This document shows, piece after piece, positions 48,435 through 60,382 of a stretch of 64,000 nucleotides of DNA; position 1 is the first letter of the stretch; each line of letters begins with the position of its first letter. The notes beneath the pieces are model-generated. The model searched no databases. It saw nothing but the letters and a program-made list of their open reading frames with translations, and was not told the origin of the DNA. The stretch comes from an uncultured Clostridia bacterium (GTDB lineage: Bacteria > Bacillota > Clostridia > TANB77 > CAG-508), in the NCBI GenBank assembly GCA_934183305.1, contig CAKPSF010000001.1:86824-150823 (forward strand), written 5' to 3'. Made by a program: the position numbers and the translations under genes.

Positions 48435-49823
48435 TTATTCAAAACTAAATGACATTGTGTAATTCATTCCATCTTTTATGCTTACTACAACTGTAAGCTC
48501 TTTGCTTTCATTATTATTTCTTAAATTAATTATTTCACATTTAAACAAATTGTAATTTTCTTCTTGGTATATATCTATTATGCTTAAATCATTCAAATAA
48601 TAGAAGTTTTTATTTATATATGTTTTTAAAGCTTCAATGGTTTTAAAGTTATTATTTTTAAAAGTACTATCTAGGTTATTGTATATTGATTTATAATCTT
48701 TTGCATTTATTTTTTGTATTAAAGCTTCAACTTGATATTTAGATTTACTTAATTCTGTAGCATCTTGGTATTCTTTCTTTGTTGATTCTGGCAATATTGT
48801 ATAATTATCTAAAAAGAATGAATATCTCATTATTCCATTTTGTTCTCTAAAGATATAAGTATTATTATATCTATCTACACATTTATAATCTATATAATTA
48901 TTATTTGTCTCAATTCCATATTTAGATAACTGCATTAATTGTATAGTTTCCTTGTTATCTATTAAATAACTCTCAAATTCATTTTTGCTACCAAATCTTT
49001 TACTGCTATATTCCGAATCCAACTTATTATATGCATCATCTTTATAATATAATAACAATTCTTTTAAATTTTCAAAATACTTATTTACCATTTCATCATC
49101 TTCAACTTTTATGTAAGAAAATGTGTTATTATTTCTATTATTAATATCTTCTTTATTGTAGTTTGAGACTACCTCACCAATTTTAATTTTATCAATTCCA
49201 TTGTCCTGTATATATTGATAAGGATATAAATTATATAATTTATTAACTGAATCAACTTCAATCATTGCTTTAATACTAAATATTATATTTTTTCCAACTA
49301 TTCTACATTTACCATTTACTATGTATAAAGATGTAGAACTATCTAATTGAACTGTTGTCATATCAGTAACTGTATATTTATAATATTGATAGTTATTATC
49401 CTTTTCAGGAACTGTTAATTTATCAAAAATATTATTTTTAGTTATGTTATATTTATTTATATACTCTGGTGATAAAATTGACATTAATTTATTTTCATTT
49501 TTATTTTCAAGTATGCTAATATAATTATCAACTATTGATACCATTGTAAAATAATCTGATCTATTATTAACATATTCTAGTTTATTATTTATTTCGTTTG
49601 AATATGGTATATTACTATAATCCCCATCTTTAGGCATTTGTTCAGATGTTTGTGTATTGTTATAATCCACATTTGTATTATTAGATATATTATTTCCACT
49701 AATAATATTGTCAGGATTTTTCTTATTTAATAATAAAATCATTCCTAAAAGTATAATAATTAGTATCATAATAATTATCATACACAATATAATTTTATTT
49801 TTTTTGTCCATATAACCCTCCAC
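48435..49823 (-). CDS. T4SS-cluster bitopic membrane protein (462 aa, N/Y-rich extracytoplasmic domain), unknown function
   Basis: N-terminal TM anchor; last gene of the operon, 0-nt gap to the hydrolase gene. Confidence 0.45.
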   Translation of the reverse strand: MEGYMDKKNKIILCMIIIMILIIILLGMILLLNKKNPDNIISGNNISNNTNVDYNNTQTSEQMPKDGDYSNIPYSNEINNKLEYVNNRSDYFTMVSIVDNYISILENKNENKLMSILSPEYINKYNITKNNIFDKLTVPEKDNNYQYYKYTVTDMTTVQLDSSTSLYIVNGKCRIVGKNIIFSIKAMIEVDSVNKLYNLYPYQYIQDNGIDKIKIGEVVSNYNKEDINNRNNNTFSYIKVEDDEMVNKYFENLKELLLYYKDDAYNKLDSEYSSKRFGSKNEFESYLIDNKETIQLMQLSKYGIETNNNYIDYKCVDRYNNTYIFREQNGIMRYSFFLDNYTILPESTKKEYQDATELSKSKYQVEALIQKINAKDYKSIYNNLDSTFKNNNFKTIEALKTYINKNFYYLNDLSIIDIYQEENYNLFKCEIINLRNNNESKELTVVVSIKDGMNYTMSFSFE

Positions 49824-51251
49824 TTATTTAGGTTCACCTAAATATACAAAACCACTTAATGTATATCCACTCCATGGGCCTCCTCCACTAGTAGGTGCAT
49901 ATCCACTTGCTTTTGTTACTTTAGAAATTCCAAACCAGCTTTCGCCACTACCAGCATGAGATACCCAAATATCTCCATTAACATCAACAGCCTCTACATA
50001 TGCGACATGTCCATATTCTCCATCTTTCCAAGAAACAATTGAATTCTTCTTTGGAGTTATTCCACAATTGAAATATCCACTAGCTTGAATATTATCATAA
50101 TAGTATCCACCGTTCACTAGATCCCCAGGATAACTTTTGTATTTTGTTCCATTCAACTCAAGGAATTGATTTGCTCTACCAATTGCCCACCATGTACATT
50201 GAAAAGCTTGCAATCTGTTATTTGATGAGTTCCACCATTGTGCAAAAGGTCCACTTTGATCAGCCGAATTCGCATAGTGATGACTAGTATTTAAAACATT
50301 TCTTGTAAGATAATCATCTAATTCTTTTATTCTATCTTCATTTACACTTCCATCTGAATTATAAATCTCGATTTCACCATAAAAATCAGAGTTATATCCT
50401 CCATCTATTATATCATCACCAAATATTTGTCTTGCAATTTTTAATAAATTGTTATCTATATAATTTACAACGTACGCTGCTTGTTCTTCAAGAGTTGTTT
50501 CTTCATCTTCTGAATGTGAGCATGGAAAATTCATATATTCAGTCAAATACATCTTTACATTTATATCTCCAGAAATATGTCCATTATGATATCTTCCCAA
50601 AAACATATATGCTGAAAATATATCATAAATAGAATTCATTTTTCCTGTTATTTTTTCATTGTATGGTGCATATAATGTAGCTTTTGTATATGCTATACTC
50701 CCCTCTTGTTGATATCCTAAAATTATATCACAGTAAAAAGAAATTGCATCATCAATACTTTCAAATTCCTTTCCAGTTGATTGGTCATTATATACTGCAA
50801 GCCCCCAATAGTTCCATTTTGAATTTGCTGGAACTTTTTCTCCAAAACTACTTTCTTGTCCGGCTTGAGCTGCACAAATAATTGGATTTATATTTTTTTC
50901 TTTACATATATCATATATCTTATCCGCATATTGAGCAAATCTTTCTTGATACCCTTCATCAGTTTTAAAGTTTTTTATACACTCAACAAATTTTTCTTTG
51001 CTTATATTTGTACCATTTACACTTATTCCACTGCCATAATAATATTCATCATCTCCTAATGCTGTTACTCCTATACTTCCGGCATCAATAAATAAACATA
51101 GAATCAAAGATGCTATTAATAATATTCCTACTCCCATTGCTATATATGGTATAAGAAATTTTAGTTTATTTAGCATTGCTTTTCCTACATTTTTACTTGC
51201 TGATTTGAACTTATTTTTTATTATATCTCCTATGTTTTGTCCGTCTCCCAT
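49824..51251 (-). CDS. TM-anchored bifunctional peptidoglycan hydrolase: lysozyme-like (glucosaminidase/FlgJ-type) domain + C-terminal CHAP amidase/peptidase (CwlT/TcpG/Orf14 analogue)
   Basis: N-terminal TM; NPIICAAQAGQESSFGE glycosidase-like motif; CHAP Cys (FQCTWWAIGRA) and His (EYGHVAYVEAV). Confidence 0.7.
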   Translation of the reverse strand: MGDGQNIGDIIKNKFKSASKNVGKAMLNKLKFLIPYIAMGVGILLIASLILCLFIDAGSIGVTALGDDEYYYGSGISVNGTNISKEKFVECIKNFKTDEGYQERFAQYADKIYDICKEKNINPIICAAQAGQESSFGEKVPANSKWNYWGLAVYNDQSTGKEFESIDDAISFYCDIILGYQQEGSIAYTKATLYAPYNEKITGKMNSIYDIFSAYMFLGRYHNGHISGDINVKMYLTEYMNFPCSHSEDEETTLEEQAAYVVNYIDNNLLKIARQIFGDDIIDGGYNSDFYGEIEIYNSDGSVNEDRIKELDDYLTRNVLNTSHHYANSADQSGPFAQWWNSSNNRLQAFQCTWWAIGRANQFLELNGTKYKSYPGDLVNGGYYYDNIQASGYFNCGITPKKNSIVSWKDGEYGHVAYVEAVDVNGDIWVSHAGSGESWFGISKVTKASGYAPTSGGGPWSGYTLSGFVYLGEPK

Positions 51252-51266
51252 AAATTTCTCCTATTA

Positions 51267-58807: not shown

Positions 58808-59182
58808 TTAAAAACTACTCATAATCTTTACTACTAACTTCCATATTCCCAATGATCCAAATACAACTATACAGCTTATTAAATATGGAAATAAAGATTC
58901 TTTTACTTGGACTTTTTGATCTATTCCTGCTGTCATAAATTTAATTCCTAATATTGCTCCAACAACAACTGCAACTACAGTTGCTACTGCAAGTAGCAAA
59001 TTATATAAATCACTTGATACTTGCTTTATTTGGTTTGTATCCATTGTTTGTGCAGTGTGTTGTGAACCAGTTCCAGTCCAATCTTCTCCTTTACTTAAAA
59101 TATTTCCTATCGCAAATGTATTGGGGATAAAAAACATAACAATTAATAATGTCAAAATCAAAATTTTAATTGTATTCTTCAT
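58808..59182 (-). CDS. VirB2/TrbC-like pilin-topology protein, paralog 2 (124 aa)
   Basis: Signal peptide + TM1 (LLAVATVVAVVVGAILGI) + loop KFMTAGIDQKVQVKESL + TM2; RBS AAGGAGGG. Confidence 0.55.
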   Translation of the reverse strand: MKNTIKILILTLLIVMFFIPNTFAIGNILSKGEDWTGTGSQHTAQTMDTNQIKQVSSDLYNLLLAVATVVAVVVGAILGIKFMTAGIDQKVQVKESLFPYLISCIVVFGSLGIWKLVVKIMSSF

Positions 59183-59251
59183 TTATAATCCCCTCCTTTA
59201 TTATTAGTTTAACATAATTATACAATATTTAACAACATTTTGCAAATTTTT

Positions 59252-60382
59252 TTAAATATTATTTATACTTTCGCCTAATGTTTGTAATACTTTTACTATT
59301 GTGCATATACCAAATAACAATATTGAGCCTATAAAATATGGCAATAAATCCTTCTTATATTCTGCTTTTTCTTCAACACTTCCAAGCATATATTTAATTC
59401 CTAATATAGCCGGAATTAATATGGCTAGTACAATTCCTATATTAGTTATAACACTTAAGATTAAACTTGCTTTTGCTGTTATTTTCTGTGCATCACTTCC
59501 TGAAATAGTATCTTGTGGAGCATAACTATTTATATCATCAAATACATCAATAAAATTAACTACATTTCTTGAGCTTGATGTACCCTTTGTTAACTGGGCT
59601 AATATTTTTCTATAAGCATTTTCCTGAGCTGTAGCCGCTTTTTTGCCTGCCTCATCAAGTTTTTCTTGTGCCTTATTTTTTTCCTCTTCAGATTGTGCAT
59701 TATCAAGATCAATTTGTGCTTTTAGTTTGTCTTCTACTGTTTGAATTTCATCAGTGGCGCTTCTTATATTATAAGTTATGTTTTTATACCATTCTTTTCT
59801 TTTATCCGGAGTAGTATTTGATACAAATGCATCCCATAAACTACTGTTTCCGTTCTTTTTATCATTATGAATTACACTTCTTAGATACATTAACTGATCT
59901 GCAGCTGTCGTTATATTGTTGACATTATTGTTATAGCAAAATCCCTCAAGTTTTTCAAGTTCCACCTCTTCGTCAGTTTTTCGTATTGTAACAGGTATTT
60001 CAACTTTTTTTTCATCTACTTCAGCGAGGTCCAAAAATTTAGTATTTACAGTAATTGATATTTTTCCTTCACCAGCTTGTATAGTATCAAAATATGCTTC
60101 TACCACCCAATCATATCCACTAACCTGAACTACCTTATGTCCATTGGTTTTTATATATATATTGTCACCATCCCAATTGGCATTAGCACTATTAACTTTA
60201 TTATAATTTACTGCAATTTTCAATGTAATAGAATCTCCCTTTTGGCATCTAATACTGTCAATCTTTTTATTTTCACTATTCAAAACATCAAGTTCTACTC
60301 CATATGATTTGCTACTAATTATTATTTGTAAAAACAATATAAAAAATATAGCTACAAGAATTTTATATACAACTCTTTTCAT
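59252..60382 (-). CDS. pilin-topology protein, paralog 1, with ~280-aa N-terminal secreted/coiled-coil domain (376 aa)
   Basis: Signal peptide; large extracytoplasmic region; C-terminal module ASLILSVITNIGIVLAILIPAILGIKYMLGSVEEKAEYKKDLLPYFIGSILLFG, near-identical to paralog 3; RBS GGAGGAAGAAA. Confidence 0.55.
   Translation of the reverse strand: MKRVVYKILVAIFFILFLQIIISSKSYGVELDVLNSENKKIDSIRCQKGDSITLKIAVNYNKVNSANANWDGDNIYIKTNGHKVVQVSGYDWVVEAYFDTIQAGEGKISITVNTKFLDLAEVDEKKVEIPVTIRKTDEEVELEKLEGFCYNNNVNNITTAADQLMYLRSVIHNDKKNGNSSLWDAFVSNTTPDKRKEWYKNITYNIRSATDEIQTVEDKLKAQIDLDNAQSEEEKNKAQEKLDEAGKKAATAQENAYRKILAQLTKGTSSSRNVVNFIDVFDDINSYAPQDTISGSDAQKITAKASLILSVITNIGIVLAILIPAILGIKYMLGSVEEKAEYKKDLLPYFIGSILLFGICTIVKVLQTLGESINNI

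Follow-up and report, generated by a model that had tools for sequence, protein, structure and literature searches.

The stretch of DNA analysed here, 64 kb (64,000 nt) of a contig from an uncultured Clostridia bacterium and hereafter the window, carries an operon for a type IV secretion system (T4SS) on the minus strand at 48435-60382. Judged by its distribution, the operon is a fixed chromosomal gene set in hundreds of gut Clostridia species. We hypothesize, with a probability of about 0.6, that it is a vertically inherited, exapted monoderm T4SS of the MPF_FATA kind (MPF, mating-pair formation), that is, a VirB4-driven surface filament or contact apparatus that has lost its DNA-transfer module. 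A chromosomal, pilin-bearing T4SS that is fixed across a clade and has no DNA-transfer genes at its locus has probably been repurposed for a cell-surface or contact function. The operon is composed of ten intact open reading frames (ORFs), listed here in operon order (aa, amino acids; TM, transmembrane):

59252..60382, minus strand: pil376, a long pilin (T4SS_pilin 25.4 bits, TrbC 20.9 bits, both just below threshold)
58808..59182, minus strand: pil124, a VirB2-like pilin paralogue (T4SS_pilin 23.5 bits, TrbC 21.7 bits, both below threshold)
58386..58742, minus strand: pil118, a VirB2/TrbC-family pilin (TrbC 45.4 bits, 9.5e-12; T4SS_pilin 39.1 bits, 8.1e-10; both above the gathering score)
57919..58257, minus strand: VirB3-like two-TM protein of the PrgI family, 112 aa (PF12666 33.5 bits, cut-off 27)
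56715..57917, minus strand: g400, TraC-like (PF26593), with an N-terminal TM anchor and a TraC-like domain
54763..56709, minus strand: VirB4-family ATPase, short form, 648 aa (P-loop_TraG/AAA_10/DUF87)
51797..54745, minus strand: VirB6-like polytopic protein, 982 aa (weak profile matches and topology)
51267..51776, minus strand: g169, bitopic, one TM segment (hhalign against the third domain of g462: E 6.1e-5, probability 65%)
49824..51251, minus strand: TM-anchored peptidoglycan hydrolase, 475 aa, glucosaminidase and CHAP (CHAP 43.6 bits, cut-off 26; Glucosaminidase 29.8 bits, cut-off 30.2)
48435..49823, minus strand: g462, bitopic, three NTF2-like domains in tandem (a fold class shared with VirB8, TraM and TcpC)

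A first-pass annotation of this DNA had proposed a ten-gene, minus-strand T4SS-like operon with all long ORFs intact, and our check of coordinates and ORFs agrees with it. The packing it described, with gaps of 0-20 nt, applies from the VirB3 gene through the last gene and fails for the pilin genes, where 65-128 nt lie between genes and at the pil118-VirB3 junction. The last gene, given there as 462 aa, is annotated with 458 aa in the identical contig L086, and its true start is probably 12 nt further in.

A scan with VirB4 of a collection holding one genome per species returned 546 matching stretches, the best 80 of which provide our counts on gene order and context. VirB4 in these 80 is 76-99% identical to that of the window, and all are metagenome-assembled genomes (MAGs) of uncultured gut Clostridia, with record names such as 'Clostridium sp. 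CAG:575' and 'CAG:343' and with human, rabbit, chicken, mouse and ruminant gut as hosts. One gene order (pilins, VirB3, TraC-like, VirB4, VirB6-like, g169-like, hydrolase, g462-like) is common to 80 of the 80 loci. Across these species-level loci, the operon lies in two conserved housekeeping contexts. The first, that of the window, is dnaB-tilS-ftsH-rpsU-M16-M16-spo0E, operon, splB-dacF; the second, found in about 43 loci, is mnmE-mnmG-rsmG-parA-parB-DUF4446, operon, ABC transporter. From what is generally known of Firmicute chromosomes, we take both gene sets to be origin-proximal. The variable presence and insertion site of an integrated conjugative element (ICE) are not seen among the 80 loci, where the operon is always present and keeps to these two contexts. 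The sporulation genes described as its neighbours do flank it in the window; as a general statement this fails, most species having the mnmE to DUF4446 genes there. A link to sporulation was considered and rejected, because spo0E, splB and dacF are confined to one sub-lineage; most species place the operon beside parAB. One MAG, Lapin-007__bin29, gives two contigs (L029 and L048), each with a full operon core and with VirB4 77% and 78% identical to that of the window, reflecting either two paralogous systems or a mixed bin.

The VirB4 protein scores above the cut-offs for PF19044, PF12846 and PF01935. Its best NCBIfam match is the CD1110 family (E 1.7e-63; 215 bits, for an equivalog cut-off of 325 bits), followed by the Mycoplasma-ICE VirB4 family (1.9e-56, also below the equivalog cut-off). 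Walker A (AKSGAGKS) is located at residue 264 and Walker B (VIVDEAW) at residue 522; Walker A and the Walker B pattern hhhDEAW are invariant in all 80 orthologues. The profiles and the two motifs confirm the proposed VirB4 ATPase with intact Walker A and B. Close to virB4, the VirB3-like protein has TM segments at residues 16-34 and 47-65 and is of the PrgI/TrsC type: its earlier description as VirB3/TcpE-like is right for the two-TM, VirB3-like part and wrong for TcpE, since the PrgI family scores above threshold. Between these two genes, g400 is kept in 80 of 80 loci, directly before VirB4, which is the TrsD slot of the plasmid pSK41. A protein identical to it in sequence (P0181) has a precomputed PF26593.2 match, and this match together with gene position suggests that g400 is the TrsD equivalent. 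The alignment of the g400 family with pSK41 TrsD by hhalign is weak (E 0.089, motif region 83-144), and the AlphaFold2 model of g400 is poor (predicted local distance difference test score, pLDDT, 59), its alignment of 52 sequences being shallow (67-92% identity). Profile searches of PDB sequences with g400, g462 and g169 gave no meaningful match.

A signal peptide and, after it, two TM helices are predicted for all three pilins. The best conserved of them, pil118 (96% identical in the related MAG L001), also matches the Mbov_0395 pilin-like family (9.6e-10) and is a candidate major pilin. By contrast with a plain VirB2-like subunit, pil376 consists of a signal peptide, an extracellular extension of about 280 aa and then a VirB2-like two-TM pilin domain at residues ~300-366, with TM segments predicted at 4-22, 311-329 and 345-363. 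The proposal of three pilins of VirB2 topology therefore stands for family and topology, with the qualification that the first is 376 aa long and has its pilin domain in just the C-terminal ~70 residues. Nearly every related locus contains 2-5 pilin genes in an array, the members of one array being about 43% identical, and 20 of the 234 pilin-like ORFs in these loci are longer than 200 aa. In one species, the ORF directly upstream of the pilin array (510 aa; L039:4643-6172) contains a partial DnaB_C/RecA-like ATPase domain.

The VirB6-like protein is made up of a signal peptide, an ectodomain of about 130 aa, at least five TM segments, a disordered linker rich in N, E and G and a K/R-rich C-terminal domain of about 420 aa. 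Its profile matches are all weak (MMCAP2_0566, 1.7e-7, 30.8 of 90 bits; pLS20_p028, 2e-4, 20.4 of 150 bits; a precomputed TrbL_3 match), and its topology and gene position fit VirB6. The gene is tandemly triplicated in L032 (3879-13193) and duplicated in L055 (12272-21422), where the copies are very large (1446 and 1577 aa); in L001 it appears split (625 + 393 aa), with an extra 993-aa copy downstream of the operon (L001:11965-14905, 18965-21944). These expansions recall the VirB6 expansions of Rickettsiales. The ectodomain of g169, whose orthologue is about 317 aa long in most species, is probably NTF2-like, and with g462 the operon contains a bitopic protein with an NTF2-like ectodomain, as in VirB8. 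The first-pass call of a TM-anchored glucosaminidase and CHAP hydrolase is upheld, CHAP scoring above threshold and Glucosaminidase just short of it; the hydrolase is a dedicated VirB1 analogue. No other gene of the operon varies as much: it is modular and swapped between species, with the combinations glucosaminidase and CHAP; Phage_lysozyme2 and CHAP; Glucosaminidase and C39_2 (C39-like); and GDSL, M23, lysozyme and M15_4. In some loci it reaches 1300-1400 aa with up to four lytic modules (GDSL esterase, M23, phage-tail lysozyme and M15_4; L019:15683-19894, L023:14307-18281 and L017:15663-18536), which exceeds the apparent need for opening the cell's own wall.

Constraint is distributed very unevenly over these proteins. 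Mean pairwise identity across species is 84% for VirB4, similar to the 83% of MnmG and 85% of ParA, and falls to 60% for VirB3, 53% for the TraC-like protein, 38% for the VirB6-like protein, 38% for the g169 family and 33% for the g462 family. Species pairs that differ more in VirB4 also tend to differ more in MnmG and ParA, the housekeeping neighbours (Spearman 0.36-0.52). The same pattern is seen between close relatives: DNA identity between the window and L001 is 88% from rpsU to g169, and their proteins are 98% identical for VirB4, 72% for pil376, 61% for g169, 50% for g462 and 35% for the hydrolase. A constrained cytoplasmic motor with fast-evolving exposed parts fits a functional surface machine under diversifying pressure, the opposite of decay.

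Pfam scans of nearly all sizeable ORFs in the whole window revealed no relaxase, coupling protein, integrase or recombinase. Outside the operon the window is mostly housekeeping (uvrC, mfd, serS, gatCAB, subunits of pyruvate:ferredoxin oxidoreductase, holB, dacF, splB, a spo0E-like gene, two M16 peptidases and rpsU). What remains is a Cna_B/thioester adhesin accompanied by a signal peptidase, a quorum-sensing module of the agr type and a few ORFs without match. Apart from AT-rich chance matches, the operon is not enclosed by att-like direct repeats, and no tRNA adjoins it, the only ones (tRNA-Cys and tRNA-Gly) lying 2.4 kb off, past splB and dacF. We also searched the window and 88 related loci (1.66 Mb) by tblastn with two type IV coupling proteins (T4CPs), two relaxases (MobA/MobL and MobV) and four recombinases; the only match was a weak one to a recombinase, and no T4CP or relaxase was found. 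No T4CP of the VirD4 or TcpA family is present in the window or within +/-10 kb of about 89 related loci, where the largest unexplained flank ORFs turned out to be FtsH, NrdD and similar proteins or had no match. The reported lack of a coupling protein, relaxase, integrase and flanking repeats thus holds within the window, by Pfam and repeat scans, and within +/-10 kb of the related loci.

Genes of this kind missing from a conjugation-like operon might mark a decaying remnant of an ICE or an island acquired recently. In favour of this, mobile elements carry the closest relatives whose flanks are readable, and the VirB6-like gene appears split in L001. We regard this as highly improbable. The ten ORFs are intact and keep their order in 80 of 80 species, VirB4 is conserved like MnmG and ParA with invariant catalytic motifs, the operon has the same composition as its flanks (GC 0.23-0.32 throughout), and no att repeat, adjacent tRNA or integrase was found. 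Because the order is kept, VirB4 is constrained and the nearest relatives with readable flanks are mobile elements, two of them with a coupling protein and integrases where the operon has housekeeping genes, a domesticated or repurposed T4SS, as first proposed, accounts better for the locus than a decaying ICE.

These relatives bear on the origin of the operon. In a library of representatives at 50% identity, the lineage comprises one full-length representative at 63% VirB4 identity and is isolated, with the next at 42%, 39% and below. The relatives at 41-42% with readable flanks are Clostridium beijerinckii p1 (NZ_CP107023), Clostridium botulinum pINGR16-02E1 and the metagenomic contigs L092/L093, and these are mobile elements, either plasmids or integrated elements. 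Their other proteins are more distant from those of the window (TraC-like 24-30%, VirB6-like ~24%), and their core order is small membrane proteins, a VirB3 of about 105-110 aa, TraC-like, VirB4, a polytopic protein of about 900-990 aa and a wall hydrolase. Integrase-type genes lie 5-12 kb upstream of VirB4 in all three mobile relatives. In C. beijerinckii p1 and L093, a T4CP of about 1000 aa (TraG-D_C / T4SS-DNA_transf) is encoded together with integrases 6-12 kb upstream; C. botulinum pINGR16-02E1 has an integrase-type gene, with no T4CP annotated in the 27 kb read. Housekeeping genes fill that upstream position in the window and the orthologous loci. The 39% relative, on short contigs (L094/L095), shows neither T4CP nor integrase there and has dnaN just upstream. 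The 63% relative, L091 (GCA_037193465.1), has TrbC pilins and the same core, with no coupling protein in its 21 kb. Genes for a TraX-family acyltransferase and a single-stranded DNA-binding protein (SSB) lie just upstream of its pilin array (L091:3571-5263); TraX is the family of the F-pilin acetylase. The simplest history would be that the mating-pair-formation module was captured from an element of the mobile kind and that the DNA-processing and integration genes were then lost.

A T4CP, and perhaps a relaxase, might alternatively be encoded elsewhere in the genome, in which case the operon would build a secretion or conjugation channel delivering protein effectors or DNA (chromosomal or mobilisable) to other cells. 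Linkage between T4CP genes and virB4 is often lacking, with T4CP homologues located away from virB4 in most Patescibacteria genomes (PMC12102498); our inspection spanned 64 kb of the genome and, for the related loci, +/-10 kb; and hydrolases that combine GDSL, M23, lysozyme and M15_4 modules could attack the wall of a target cell. We hold this arrangement to be doubtful: neither gene was found in the 1.66 Mb around the operon (about 89 loci) or in the window, and in the mobile relatives the T4CP, where seen, is within about 10-12 kb of VirB4, so that its absence at the operon looks like loss and not relocation.

By the composition of its core, the best architectural match of the operon is the MPF_FATA type (pSK41-like order; clostridial megaplasmids), a placement that follows from the PrgI-type VirB3, the protein in the TrsD position and the best VirB4 profile matches. 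The match to the mating-pair-formation module of Tn916, ICEBs1 and pCW3 that had been suggested is not borne out, as those are MPF_FA systems with a TcpE-type VirB3. They share with the operon a monoderm layout of VirB3-like, VirB4 and VirB6-like proteins, a bifunctional hydrolase and a VirB8-like NTF2 protein; unlike them, the operon has a PrgI VirB3, a TraC/TrsD-like gene before VirB4, pilin genes, and a VirB4 whose best NCBIfam matches are the CD1110 and Mycoplasma-ICE families. Systems of the pSK41/pGO1/pIP501 type have the order TrsB (annotated CagC/VirB2-like), TrsC, TrsD, TrsE (VirB4), TrsF, TrsG (CHAP) and TrsH, and the operon agrees with pSK41 in this order. Because tblastn of the window proteins, VirB4 included, against pSK41 found no match, the likeness to this plasmid is one of gene order alone. 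In addition, pSK41 encodes a T4CP, relaxases, a topoisomerase and SSB, and it has a single small VirB2-like gene where the operon has an array. The clostridial megaplasmid T4SSs, which include the closest sequence relatives with readable flanks, have the same core order as the operon and differ from it in lying on plasmids or integrated elements with integrase-type genes upstream, whereas the operon is chromosomal with housekeeping flanks.

The closest described analogue of the operon is the chromosomal T4SS of Patescibacteria, or candidate phyla radiation (Ca. Southlakia epibionticum, TM7x; Quinonero-Coronel et al. 2025, PMC12102498). Derived from MPF_FATA and present throughout the clade, that system is often near dnaA and relaxase-less, contains VirB2 arrays, PrgI, TrsD, VirB4, VirB6 and wall hydrolases, and is encoded by genes that are essential for the epibiotic growth of Ca. 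Southlakia (PMC12102498). Like it, the operon is of monoderm, MPF_FATA-derived type, chromosomal, clade-wide and without an adjoining relaxase, has a PrgI-type VirB3 and a TrsD-type protein adjoining VirB4, with VirB6 and wall hydrolases downstream, and contains a divergent array of VirB2-like pilins (2-5 genes, 2-11 in Patescibacteria). Both are often origin-proximal and are found in most genomes of their clade, with largely vertical descent. The hosts differ, being ultrasmall epibionts in one case and Gram-positive-type, sporulation-gene-bearing Clostridia in the other, and NTF2/VirB8-like proteins are clear in the operon and rarely detected in Patescibacteria. The sequence of VirB4 suggests that it falls outside the monophyletic Patescibacteria clade. 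As VirB4 is closest to clostridial plasmid and ICE systems (41-42%), domestication in Clostridia was probably independent of that in Patescibacteria.

A review of December 2025 states that VirB2-type pilins are absent from Gram-positive T4SSs, with Patescibacteria as the sole exception, and that the T4SSs of Patescibacteria are unique among monoderms in their potential for conjugative pili (PMC12857230). Our literature search found no paper describing the operon in Clostridia. The view that a pilin triplet is unusual in such a system needs to be narrowed: VirB2-like genes do occur in Firmicute elements (TrsB of pSK41, annotated as CagC family), and it is the chromosomal array that has been described so far only for Patescibacteria. 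A 'conserved pilin' paper on the clade TANB77, considered as a possible description of the operon, concerns a Tad (type IVc) pilus cluster and not this T4SS.

A further comparison is with the DNA-import systems ComB of Helicobacter and Ced/Ted of Archaea. These relatives of T4SSs are likewise exapted and chromosomal and lack both relaxase and T4CP, and the pilins of Ced and Ted are VirB2-like. The three systems have other envelopes and component sets, with no dedicated multi-domain wall hydrolase or NTF2-domain proteins. By analogy, the operon could encode a DNA-uptake (competence) machine in which a T4CP-less, VirB4-driven, VirB2-like filament imports DNA. This would suit its architecture, in which VirB4 has neither T4CP nor relaxase nearby and is combined with VirB2-like pilins and a VirB6-like channel, and there are precedents in ComB (PMC12857230) and in Ced, which has VirB2-like pilins (PMC9905601). 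However, no comEC, comF, dprA or recA-type gene is linked to the operon in the 80 loci, and hypervariable multi-domain hydrolases and VirB6 duplications are unexpected for simple DNA import; in Ca. Southlakia, moreover, the T4SS is essential independently of ComEC (PMC12857230). We consider DNA uptake quite unlikely.

Returning to an exapted surface apparatus, the proposed mechanism is as follows. The hydrolase would open the wall locally. The VirB3-like, TraC-like and VirB6-like proteins would form a membrane platform for VirB4, and the NTF2-domain proteins g169 and g462 would scaffold a path across the wall zone. VirB4 would extract VirB2-like pilins from the membrane and polymerise them into a surface filament through the opening made by the hydrolase, with pil376 adding an exposed extra domain to the filament. 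The filament or channel would then mediate contact with cells or surfaces and possibly the exchange of material, the locus itself not being transferred. We infer that the apparatus forms a pilus, serves in contact and works independently of a coupling protein.

Several points count against this proposal. Among Firmicute T4SSs, none has so far been observed to form a pilus (PMC12857230). The absence of T4CP and relaxase covers the window and +/-10 kb of the related loci, not a whole genome, and T4CP homologues in Patescibacteria are usually encoded far from virB4 (PMC12102498). The assignments of VirB6 and of two of the three pilins combine sub-threshold profile matches with topology, and the operon belongs to uncultured organisms and is known here from genes alone.

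A more specific variant would make the operon the Firmicute counterpart of the 'lifestyle' T4SS of Patescibacteria, a pilus-bearing conduit by which gut Clostridia with reduced genomes attach to neighbours and take up or exchange macromolecules. We judge this unlikely; if true, the lineage would depend on partner cells, and its fast-evolving pilins, VirB6 ectodomains, NTF2 proteins and hydrolase cocktails would mirror partner specificity.

The operon, in which VirB4 has a TrsD-type partner, the pilin genes form an array and DNA-processing genes are missing from the neighbourhood, gives Clostridia a chromosomal system comparable to that of Patescibacteria, and exaptation of monoderm conjugation machines would then have occurred more than once. 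Its mobile relatives at 41-42% identity make this a lineage in which the loss of modules on domestication can be traced. The operon also flags a surface structure of an abundant, uncultured gut clade as a candidate determinant of cell-cell or host interaction. TANB77 has a clade-specific Tad pilus; if the clade studied here is TANB77, a guess prompted by low GC, by record names of the 'Clostridium sp. CAG' kind for uncultured gut bacteria and by the number of species, it has already been tied to immunotherapy response through that different pilus (PMC11680825).

Two candidate control signals precede the operon:

60489..60510, minus strand: terminator-like hairpin (9-pair stem with 4 G-C pairs, then a T-run; from a consensus scan only)
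60416..60443, minus strand: sigma-70-like promoter candidate, TTGAAA-16-TAAAAT (a weak consensus match in AT-rich DNA)

The hairpin lies directly 3' of the spo0E-like gene and parts that gene from the T4SS operon, and the promoter candidate is upstream of the first pilin gene, pil376. No regulatory RNA from Rfam was found in the window.

Elsewhere in the window, two adjacent minus-strand ORFs (633 aa and 194 aa; 31934-34442) are without any Pfam match. A 1662-aa surface adhesin (39712-45998; a thioester domain, at least four Cna_B repeats and DUF11) adjoins a gene for an S26 signal peptidase, and the tRNA-Cys and tRNA-Gly genes are right next to it. Such a layout is reminiscent of the pilus or adhesin islets of Gram-positive bacteria that include a SipA-type peptidase, and this one may have been inserted at the tRNAs. 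In other loci that reach that far, the adhesin is not kept by the T4SS operon. Finally, the agr-type module occupies 1226-4127 and consists of a LytTR response regulator (1226-1966), a GHKL histidine kinase (1920-3269) and AgrB (3504-4127, minus strand).

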